This document shows positions 5,328 to 7,395 of a stretch of DNA of 64,000 nucleotides, piece after piece (position 1 is the first letter of the stretch; each line of letters begins with the position of its first letter). The stretch is from an uncultured archaeon (GTDB lineage Archaea; Thermoproteota; Nitrososphaeria; Nitrososphaerales; Gagatemarchaeaceae), in assembly GCA_963817525.1 (NCBI GenBank), contig CAWFOU010000007.1, positions 576,001-640,000 on the forward strand, written 5' to 3'. Made by a program: the position numbers and the translations under genes. The notes beneath the pieces were generated by a model that saw only the letters and a program-made list of their open reading frames with translations, had not been told where the DNA came from and did not search any database.

Positions 5328-7395
5328 GCTCTTCGAGCATCTCGGTCACGATCGCGGCCGGAGACCCGTCCCTCCGGGCGATCTCCTGCCTCCCGGGGGG
5401 GCTGTCCTTGTAGGGAGGGATCCTCTGGGCGAGCCTCTCCTCGTATATCGGGATCCGCTCGTTCTGGTAGAAGAGGCCGATCGGCGTGTGGTCGCCGAAC
5501 TCGAACGACTTCATGATCGCCTGCTTGATTTTCTCCTCCATCTCGTCCGTAGCGGACGACTTGACGACCCCGTCGTATCCGGTCTCCTCGAGCTTGTACG
5601 TGCGCGGTATTGGCCTGCCGCCGGTGTCCAAGCCGGTGTCGAGGAGGCCCTCTCCGGACCAGTACTCCTTGGTGAGGATGTCGTTGTATGTGGGGCACGG
5701 CTGAAGGACGTCGAGGAACGCGAACCCCTTGTGCTGAATGGCCTTTCTGATGAGGTCCTTCAGGTGCCTCACGTCGTACGCGTATCCCCGTGCGACGAAG
5801 GTGTACCCCGAAGCGAGGGCGAGCATCAACGGGTTGATCGCCTGGTTTATGTTGGGCATCGCGAGGGATTTGGTCTTCATCCCTAGCTTCAACGTGGGGG
5901 AGGCCTGCCCCTTTGTAAGCCCGTAGACCCCGTTGTCGAAGAGGATGTAGGCCATGTCGACGTTCCTCCTTCCGGAGTTCACAAAGTGCCCCGCGCCTAT
6001 GCCTAGCCCGTCTCCGTCACCGCCGCACGCGATGACCTCGAGCTGCGGGTTTGAGAGCTTGATCCCCGTGGCGAACGGCAGGGACCGGCCGTGGAGCGTG
6101 TGGATCCCGTAGGTGTTCACGAAGTGGGGCGTCTTGCTCGAGCACCCGACCCCAGACACCAGCGCTACGTTGTCCGGCTCCACGTTCATCTCCGCCAGGG
6201 CCATCTGGACCGCGCTGAGAATCCCAAAGTCGCCGCAGTTGCCGCAGGCCGCTATGTTGGTCACGAAAGTGTGGCCGGGGTCGTCCATGGTCAGGTCGTA
6301 TACGTGCCCCTCGAAGGGCATCTTGGTTATCGCAGAGACTGGAAGGTACACCCTGCCGTTCTTGATCACGGAGGACCTCTTGTCCCTCTGGTTTGTCTTC
6401 CGGTCCCTCTTGCCCACAATCTCCGCCAGCTGATTGTAGTCCCTCCAGTAGCTCACGTAGAGTCTGTAGGCGGTCCTGTGGTTTTCGTGGGCCTCCTCTG
6501 TGCTGACAATCGGGACAATCCCCTGGCGGAGGAGCAGGAGCTTCATCTGCTCCGCTAGGACCACCGAGGTGGTGGTGAACCTCGCTTTGGCCTTCTTGAA
6601 ATCCCCGTCGCCCCTCCACAGGCCCCTGATAAGCGCGGCCTGCTTCACGGGAGGCAGGAACATCAATTCGTGGGGGATTCGTTTGTCCTCGGCATTGCGG
6701 CCGAACAAATCCCCGAAGATTTCTGCCAGATAGGAGGAGTGGAAGACAAGGTCAATGCCGTTCCCGTCATCCTGCGGCTCCGTCCTGCCCTCCAGGCCGA
6801 AGACGCCCTTCATTAGGGACATTATGTCGTCGACCAGGTCGGCCTCATCCTTGTGAAGGCTGAAAATGAGGGACCTTTTGTGCGAACTCCCCTCGGCAGC
6901 ATAGTAGCCGAGCAGGCGGAGGAAGTCGGCGTCGACCGCCACTGTTGAAGGAAGCGGCTTGCTCCGGATGTCCTTGGCCTTCCTTGTGAAGTTGATTGGG
7001 AAGGTGGTCATGTCCACGACCTTCTGCATGACTGGGAAGACCACGTAGTCGCCGACGCGCAGGTCGGCGGCCTCTATCTTCTCCTCCCTGAACTCGGCAT
7101 TGTGCCTGTGCCTTCCCCATGCCCTCCTCACCGCGATGAATGGGTGCTCTGGGGTCGCCTTTAGCTCGCCGAAGCACTTCACCCGGACGTGATAGAGGGG
7201 GCCTGAATAGAGGTGGTCAATCCTCGCGGCCACCTGCTTGTACTCGCCCGCCGCGGTCAGCACGCGCTCTCCGGGCCTCACCTCGAGGATGGTCTTGACC
7301 GAGGGATTCGCGACTATGAGGGTGTCGCCCGTGACGCACCCAGGGCACCAGTCGTTGTGGACCTCCGTCTTGAGGTCCGTCAGCTTAAGTGCCAA
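5314..7395 (-). CDS. 2-oxoacid:ferredoxin oxidoreductase beta subunit (TPP-binding), intein-containing precursor; 326 aa after splicing
   Basis: Spliced product reads WCPG|CGDFGIL...VSGVGCS...HTLHGR...GGDGD..GIG...[15 protein letters not shown]...QPCPTYN. Confidence 0.95.
6238..7338 (-). mobile_element. Intein (367 aa) with LAGLIDADG homing endonuclease
   Basis: Block A CVTGDTLI, block B ATPEHPF, blocks [12 protein letters not shown] and [10 protein letters not shown], block [14 protein letters not shown], terminal GN followed by Cys+1. Removal restores the host motif. Confidence 0.95.

Follow-up and report, generated by a model that had tools for sequence, protein, structure and literature searches.

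A LAGLIDADG intein in the cluster-binding CxGC loop of an archaeal 2-oxoacid:ferredoxin oxidoreductase beta subunit

We analyzed a 64,000-nucleotide stretch of DNA from an uncultured archaeon of the Gagatemarchaeaceae (contig CAWFOU010000007.1, positions 576,001 to 640,000; hereafter the window), in which the gene for the beta subunit of a 2-oxoacid:ferredoxin oxidoreductase (OFOR) is interrupted by an intein. The insertion point lies between Gly19 and Cys387 (WCPG/CGDFG), and four cysteines fall within seven residues of the two junctions. An initial annotation made from the letters alone had read these junctions as C17-P-G-C20 and C384-G-N/C387, with no penultimate histidine, and both translation and alignment confirm this. 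It had also proposed that the precursor may be an evolved, possibly double-locked storage form of the enzyme. Our preferred explanation, to which we assign a probability of about 0.7, is a different one: a canonical class-1 intein with an apparently intact LAGLIDADG homing endonuclease, one allele of a mobile, site-specific family, in which the disulfide trap most likely came about as a by-product and did not evolve for storage.

The reading frame is open across all 693 codons (5314-7395, minus strand), with no stop codon in 6232-7350 (WCPG C...AACGN CG). In an alignment with nine intein-free beta subunits, the precursor differs by a single 367-residue gap whose removal restores WCPGCGDFG, a motif carried by 114 of 118 intein-free relatives, that is, by all full-length ones, the other four being N-terminally partial. 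HMMER and MAFFT both placed this gap three residues early, at residues 17-383, because the intein end C-G-N resembles the extein C-P-G. We rejected that placement, since an intein needs a Cys1 start and an Asn end and since the two DNA stretches, TGCCCTGGGTGC and TGCGGCAACTGC, have just Cys codons in common. The intein chemistry sets the insert at residues 20-386 (window 6238-7338), and the target site is not duplicated.

Pfam searches with the 693-residue precursor returned TPP_enzyme_C (8.9e-30), PFO_beta_C (1.1e-10) and LAGLIDADG_3 (8.3e-15). The closest solved structures to the beta subunit are the Sulfolobus tokodaii OFOR (StOFOR) beta chains 5b48_B (8.9e-109) and 5b46_B (2.1e-107), which match only from query residue 383/384 on (5b48_B over residues 384-692, with StOFOR beta entering at its residue 12), and the middle of the precursor matches the intein endonuclease PI-PkoII (2cw7_A, 2.5e-14) and V-ATPase inteins in the sequence search. 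An AlphaFold2 model of residues 1-400, built from 44 aligned sequences, reached a mean predicted local distance difference test score of 88.7 and a predicted template modeling score of 0.89. Its best Foldseek match was the endonuclease-containing TliVMA intein 7qsu (3.9e-24, TMq 0.69), followed by PhoVMA, PI-PkoII, PI-SceI, PI-PfuI and the free LAGLIDADG enzyme I-DmoI. The insert shares its two-domain architecture and fold with the solved inteins TliVMA (7qsu/7qss), PhoVMA (7qst), PI-PkoII (2cw7), PI-SceI and PI-PfuI (E-values of 3.9e-24 to 1e-13, TMq 0.51-0.69), although at just 12-20% identity, and their hosts are V-ATPase and DNA polymerase. Matching in sequence and in modeled fold, it is a real domain insertion and not a chance motif.

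The host gene product is an OFOR beta subunit of the two-subunit, (alpha-beta)2 type: it combines a thiamine pyrophosphate (TPP) domain with PFO_beta_C, resembles StOFOR beta and is encoded next to a fused alpha subunit, and no Fer4 or ferredoxin (delta) domain was matched by Pfam in either subunit. Cys17 and Cys387, the two cysteines of the CxGC loop, flank the intein, and two more, Cys418 and Cys567, are invariant and are inferred to be further cluster ligands. As the initial annotation had held, OFOR cysteines do bind a [4Fe-4S] cluster, which is described for the CXGC motif (Cys12b-Cys15b) of StOFOR2 (PMC5020499).

Of 7994 candidates scored in a family search with residues 1-400 as the query, 298 protein clusters reached E≤1e-5; the allele comparisons that follow use the best 120 rows per search and are not a census. 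Among the best 120 of the 298 clusters, LAGLIDADG_3 was found in all and the OFOR-beta Pfam domains in 119. Both junctions are kept in 114 of these 120 proteins, and the other six are truncated. The sources named are Nitrososphaerota/Thaumarchaeota, Nitrososphaera sp., Candidatus Nitrosocaldus, Micrarchaeota and Chloroflexota/Limnocylindria. A scan of genome-representative contigs by extein peptide patterns, which gives taxonomy hints but no census, yielded at least 80 loci. The best match among those listed is an intein-free allele in a Nitrososphaerales metagenome-assembled genome (MAG) (L001, 71% extein identity), and only one of the 80 listed (L009) is clearly intein-bearing. It is the OFOR beta gene of a Bipolaricaulota MAG (2866-4968 of that locus), which carries an intein-size insert and matches residues 1-692 at 45% identity over 2103 bases. 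The site is thus occupied in both domains, Archaea and Bacteria.

The insert carries the features of a class-1 intein, namely a Cys20 nucleophile, a TxxH block B, Asn386 followed by Cys387, in-frame insertion and a HINT fold, and its endonuclease part has two LAGLIDADG motifs, each with an acidic end residue. All 115 alleles have Cys1, Thr81 and His84, and Asn386 and Cys387 are invariant in alignments A1 and A2. The penultimate position is far more variable (G in 59, H in 54, C in one and S in one of the 115), and the C-terminal tripeptides are LHN in 52 alleles, SGN in 47, CGN in 12, VHN in two, and SCN and SSN in one each. The Gly-Asn ending of the window's intein is an older, clade-wide trait.

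At the N-junction, the precursor motif C-P-G-Cys1 is the same as the redox trap engineered into DnaE inteins (Callahan et al. 2011, 2013; PMC10772547, PMC3922620), a likeness that the initial annotation had rightly pointed out. The engineered trap uses a mini or split intein and foreign exteins, whereas the OFOR motif is native and its CPG is part of the host's own cluster-binding loop. Given the identity of the motif, redox-sensitive splicing is chemically plausible, and by analogy the precursor could probably be trapped in vitro by a Cys17-Cys20 disulfide. An evolved redox switch would go further: a Cys17-Cys20 disulfide, joined in one subclade by Cys384-Cys387, would block the N-S acyl shift and transesterification, and inactive OFOR beta would be freed on reduction, to the benefit of the host. 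Besides the shared motif and the role of these cysteines as cluster ligands, such a switch would have a natural precedent in the Pyrococcus abyssi MoaA intein, whose native Cys-3/Cys1 disulfide controls activity, as had been stated from the outset (PMC3922620, PMC10663303). Cys1/Cys+1 and internal disulfides are known as well, in PolII inteins (PMC3922620, PMC10663303).

The conservation pattern makes this switch unlikely. The N-junction WC-x-G/C, i.e., C(-3)xxC1, occurs in 114 of 114 alleles with both junctions, but Cys-3 and Cys+1 are present just as invariantly in all 114 full-length intein-free alleles. Conservation of the trap residues does not extend beyond the demands of host function, and there is therefore no signal of selection for the trap. 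The insertion site itself imposes the N-junction CxxC: Cys-3 and Cys+1 serve the host as ligands of its cluster and are invariant in empty alleles, and the intein supplies its Cys1 at the old place of Cys+1. From these alignments, C(-3)-P-G-C1 reads as the unavoidable result of a Cys1 intein landing before the second cysteine of a host CxxC. The oxygen sensitivity ascribed to the enzyme family by the initial annotation does not fit this subtype either, since two-subunit (alpha-beta)2 OFORs are reported to tolerate oxygen relatively well and to be typical of aerobic organisms (PMC5020499).

The second half of the supposed double lock, Cys384 at the C-junction, arose by one change on the intein tree and is present in 12 of 115 alleles. 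The position is Ser in 47 alleles and Leu or Val in 54. In the starred sets of a comparison of 195 inteins, the CGN group lies inside the SGN group, which makes Ser-to-Cys the likely direction. Related inteins came from an all-against-all HMMER search, in which residues 1-400 matched 7221 proteins at E≤0.001; the best 150 gave 80 inteins with both junctions resolved, 78 of them in other hosts. The equivalent of position 384 is V, L, I, A or F in 68 of these 78, suggesting that its side chain faces the core. A conservative Ser-to-Cys change at this usually hydrophobic position needs no redox explanation, and the C-junction cysteine appears to be just such a change in one young, shallow subclade.

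The distribution of the intein points to mobility. Searching with the C-extein of the window brought up two intein-free alleles, P0269 (93% identity, on a 360-kb contig) and P0270 (92%), which are as near to it as most intein-bearing relatives. On a FastTree phylogeny of 229 C-exteins (114 empty, 51 of HN type, 49 of SxN type and 15 of CGN type, with ten short rows left out), both nest within the window's own extein clade with a support of 99, so close relatives do without the supposed switch. Intein presence or absence needs 37 changes on this tree, a number inflated to some degree by tree error, whereas 200 shuffles of the labels required 76 on average and never fewer than 63; presence is therefore clustered but often changing. 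Discordant identities were also observed: 83% in the extein and 44% in the intein for P0068, 90% and 69% for P0018, and 43-47% and 55-58% for the Micrarchaeota alleles. This pattern reads as a homing cycle with horizontal transfer and intein replacement, not as a fixed regulatory module. GC content in 300-base windows, 0.58-0.63 in the intein vs 0.57-0.67 in the flanks, gave no usable signal of recent transfer. The nested empty alleles, together with the conserved catalytic residues of the endonuclease, argue for an active selfish element and, against a redox switch, for selfish maintenance. Site-specific cleavage of the empty allele would have only indirect support, from the sporadic distribution.

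The intein sits between the glycine and the second cysteine of the CxGC loop, by which the beta subunit holds its single [4Fe-4S] cluster. In the mechanism that we favor, the endonuclease would recognize the conserved WCPGCGDFG-coding DNA of empty alleles and copy the intein in. After translation, the intein would remove itself via Cys1, the TxxH block, Asn386 cyclization and Cys+1, restoring the CPGC ligand loop, and only then would the beta subunit be expected to bind its cluster and function normally. A precursor caught before this step would probably be held by Cys17-Cys20 in vitro, in the manner of the engineered trap.

Several points weigh against this explanation. The allele comparisons draw on best-ranked rows and not on a census, and the trees were all built with FastTree. 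Within its subclade, every one of the 12 full-length members keeps Cys384, even where intein identity drops to 78%, as a redox switch would lead one to expect. MoaA, the only described natural Cys-3/Cys1 case, is also an Fe-S enzyme, and together with the identity of the CPGC motif this gives a selected redox role some weight. Finally, the Pfam family Intein_splicing remained below threshold on the precursor (31.3 bits vs a curated cut-off of 35.8), and the penultimate histidine is absent, with Gly385 in its place. These last two points would equally suit a decayed, non-splicing insert, in which loss of the histidine killed C-terminal cleavage and left a dead or moonlighting gene copy. A penultimate histidine, which usually assists Asn cyclization, is usual but not obligatory in inteins, and Chen, Benner and Perler reportedly described splicing without it in 2000 (cited in PMC4031507). 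The uninterrupted frame of 693 codons also speaks against decay, as do exteins conserved to as much as 99% identity (P0001) and the invariance of the other splicing residues in 115 alleles, including the 59 with a penultimate glycine. Decay is thus extremely improbable.

Among known systems, the P. abyssi MoaA intein is the nearest likeness: a class-1 Cys1 intein in an Fe-S enzyme (MoaA is labelled a radical-SAM Fe-S oxidoreductase in the supplement of PMC4760082) with a native extein cysteine at -3. Its Cys-3/Cys1 disulfide blocks the first splicing step until reduction, and for MoaA this redox dependence was measured (PMC3922620, PMC10663303). Host protein and site differ, and the OFOR intein has Pro-Gly between the two cysteines and, in one subclade, an extra cysteine three residues before Cys+1. 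The mycobacterial SufB and DnaB stress-sensor inteins resemble it in lying in or near Fe-S metabolism or essential enzymes and in having oxidant- or metal-sensitive catalytic cysteines (PMC4760082, PMC6195587, PMC8891592). Unlike the OFOR intein, they occupy other hosts and sites, and they are described as sensing by Cys1/Cys+1 or internal residues and not by an extein CxxC.

Inteins in this host family have been counted before. A PorB_COG1013 column appears in the archaeal intein census that Novikova et al. published in 2016 (PMC4760082, supplementary file 2, sheet Other_Archaea). As we read its tab positions, the entries belong to Candidatus Parvarchaeum acidiphilum and Candidatus Parvarchaeum acidophilus, in line with the Micrarchaeota alleles. 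The column concerns the same OFOR/PFOR beta host family and gives counts per genome, with no site, junction or redox discussion in that file. Within file 2, PorB entries are zero in Euryarchaeota, and none is given for any Thaumarchaeota genome (PMC4760082). Our literature search for an OFOR, PorB or KorB intein, which did not cover InBase, found no paper discussing one beyond the listing in this column, and the papers naming both topics do not link them.

The physiological meaning of natural conditional protein splicing is still debated (PMC4031507, PMC4760082), and natural examples are few. The allele family at the OFOR site provides a native precursor with the exact engineered CPGC trap, and does so in an enzyme of central carbon metabolism, not in a replication protein. 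It also contains its own natural controls: inteins ending in CGN, SGN or HN, and near-identical exteins whose alleles are empty. With these at hand, the redox question is cheap to test.

The related inteins of other hosts show how often such motifs are invaded. Cysteine occupies position -3 in 17 of the 78, compared with 1, 0, 1 and 2 at positions -5, -4, -2 and -1. Pfam searches on examples (from P0121-P0268) identified thioredoxin-reductase-like Pyr_redox_2 proteins (pyridine-nucleotide-disulfide oxidoreductases, with the junction C-A-T/C...N/C-D-G), the DnaG CHC2 zinc finger (C-F-G/C) and 4Fe-4S ferredoxin (Fer4) domains; in NifU_N/IscU, the intein lies at the Cys-Gly-Asp ligand, without Cys-3. 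The remaining members of these host groups were assigned by junction motif only. A Cys1 intein homing to the second cysteine of a CxxC will always create C-x-x-Cys1, and Fe-S, zinc and redox CxxC motifs emerge as recurrent intein homing sites in uncultured lineages. The statement of the initial annotation that most inteins lie in replication genes stands for genome censuses (PMC4760082), but the relatives of the OFOR intein are often found in Fe-S, zinc or redox CxxC motifs.

This recurrence bears on a further reading, in which the precursor would bind Zn, Fe or Fe-S through Cys17, Cys20 and Cys387 (and Cys384 in the subclade), which would keep the nucleophiles needed for splicing out of reach until the metal leaves or is exchanged. 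The clustering of the four cysteines around the junctions would favor it: C17-P-G-C20 copies the native ligand motif, the splice junctions of the intein lie side by side, and Cys384 would add a Cys4 site made of two CxxC knuckles. Relatives located at metal-ligand cysteines of the DnaG CHC2 zinc finger, Fer4 and NifU_N/IscU point the same way, and divalent cations are described as inhibiting cis- and trans-splicing inteins (PMC4031507, PMC7360933). Nevertheless, the whole basis of the idea is geometry, Cys384 is absent from 103 of 115 alleles, and no precedent for cluster binding by an intein precursor turned up, although no search was aimed at it. We regard metal gating as very unlikely. A broader proposal covering both gates, a long shot in our view, is that inteins placed before the second cysteine of a host CxxC motif, be it a metal or a redox motif, represent a class of natural maturation gates, in which a C-x-x-Cys1 decoy of the host motif, built automatically by every such insertion, holds the precursor by a disulfide or by metal or Fe-S binding until the cell is reduced or supplies the cofactor. 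If so, the gate hosts would include OFOR beta, thioredoxin-reductase-like flavoproteins, the DnaG zinc finger and ferredoxin domains, and the C-junction CxxC of the subclade would complete a Cys4 site across two adjacent splice junctions.

A wider comparison of inteins offers a hint of how splicing could proceed with a penultimate glycine. Across 195 inteins, the block-F residue covaries with the penultimate one: Asp is paired with G, C or S in 61 and with H in 13, and Asn with H in 117 and with G in four. The block-F Asp may thus compensate for the absent penultimate histidine. The four Asn-with-Gly cases are the DnaG zinc-finger inteins. These were considered as close kin of the OFOR Gly-Asn clade and rejected, as they form a separate starred clade and have Asn, not Asp, at block F; the ending therefore arose independently in the two groups.

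The coordinates of the OFOR genes and of the parts of the intein are collected in Table 1.

Table 1. Features of the intein-interrupted OFOR beta gene and its alpha partner in the window.
Feature	Window positions	Strand	Description
OFOR beta-subunit precursor gene, intein-interrupted	5314..7395	(-)	693 aa, TTG start, TGA stop; open reading frame list, Pfam and PDB matches
OFOR alpha subunit	7385..9391	(-)	668 aa; Pfam POR, POR_N, PFOR_II
N-extein, residues 1-19	7339..7395	(-)	cluster-ligand Cys17 (position -3); N-termini of intein-free alleles match it position by position
Intein, residues 20-386	6238..7338	(-)	367 aa; LAGLIDADG homing-endonuclease domain set within a HINT splicing domain; gap against intein-free alleles, AlphaFold2, Foldseek
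N-junction C17-P-G-C20	7336..7347	(-)	TGC CCT GGG TGC; extein Cys-3 and intein Cys1
Intein block B, T81-P-E-H84 (TxxH)	7144..7155	(-)	T81 and H84 invariant in 115/115 alleles
First LAGLIDADG motif, RLLGYYAAE168G	6889..6918	(-)	catalytic-position Glu168; E168 in 112/115 alleles
Second LAGLIDADG motif, LIRGLWRGD263G	6604..6633	(-)	catalytic-position Asp263; D263 in 113/115 alleles
Intein block F with Asp367	6262..6309	(-)	V365 invariant; position 367 D in 61 and N in 54 of 115 alleles
C-junction C384-G-N386/C387	6235..6246	(-)	TGC GGC AAC TGC; N386 and C387 invariant; C387 is extein Cys+1 and cluster ligand
C-extein, residues 387-693, and stop codon	5314..6237	(-)	TPP-binding domain; Cys418 and Cys567 invariant in alignment A1

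One extra intein cysteine, Cys74 of the precursor (window 7174-7176), lies seven residues before block B and is present in 64 of 115 alleles. The alpha gene is located upstream of the beta gene and overlaps its start by 11 bases, judging by the reading-frame coordinates. From the other side, a 303-residue reading frame (4416-5327, plus strand) converges on the beta gene with a 14-base overlap of its 3' end and has no Pfam match at 1e-5.

The host is a Nitrososphaerota-like, soil-type archaeon, and the nearest named relatives of the window are Nitrososphaerota. An archaeal rRNA operon occupies window positions 1-1845 and 2072-3569 (minus strand). Its 16S gene is complete, and its 23S gene is cut by the window edge after the first 1821 model positions. 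An Fe-S_biosyn (HesB/IscA-type) protein (5.5e-15) is encoded at 44450-45013 (plus strand), ~37 kb from the OFOR genes. In the census, PolC_DP2 ranks among the archaeal proteins that most often host inteins (78 entries for Euryarchaeota; PMC4760082). In the window, both DNA polymerase D genes, for the large DP2 subunit (53340-56837, plus strand, 1165 aa) and the small subunit (47519-49054, plus strand), are without an intein. An Orc1/Cdc6 gene (49040-50233, minus strand), bordered by a non-coding stretch that reaches about 50675, adjoins the small-subunit gene, and a replication origin may lie nearby.

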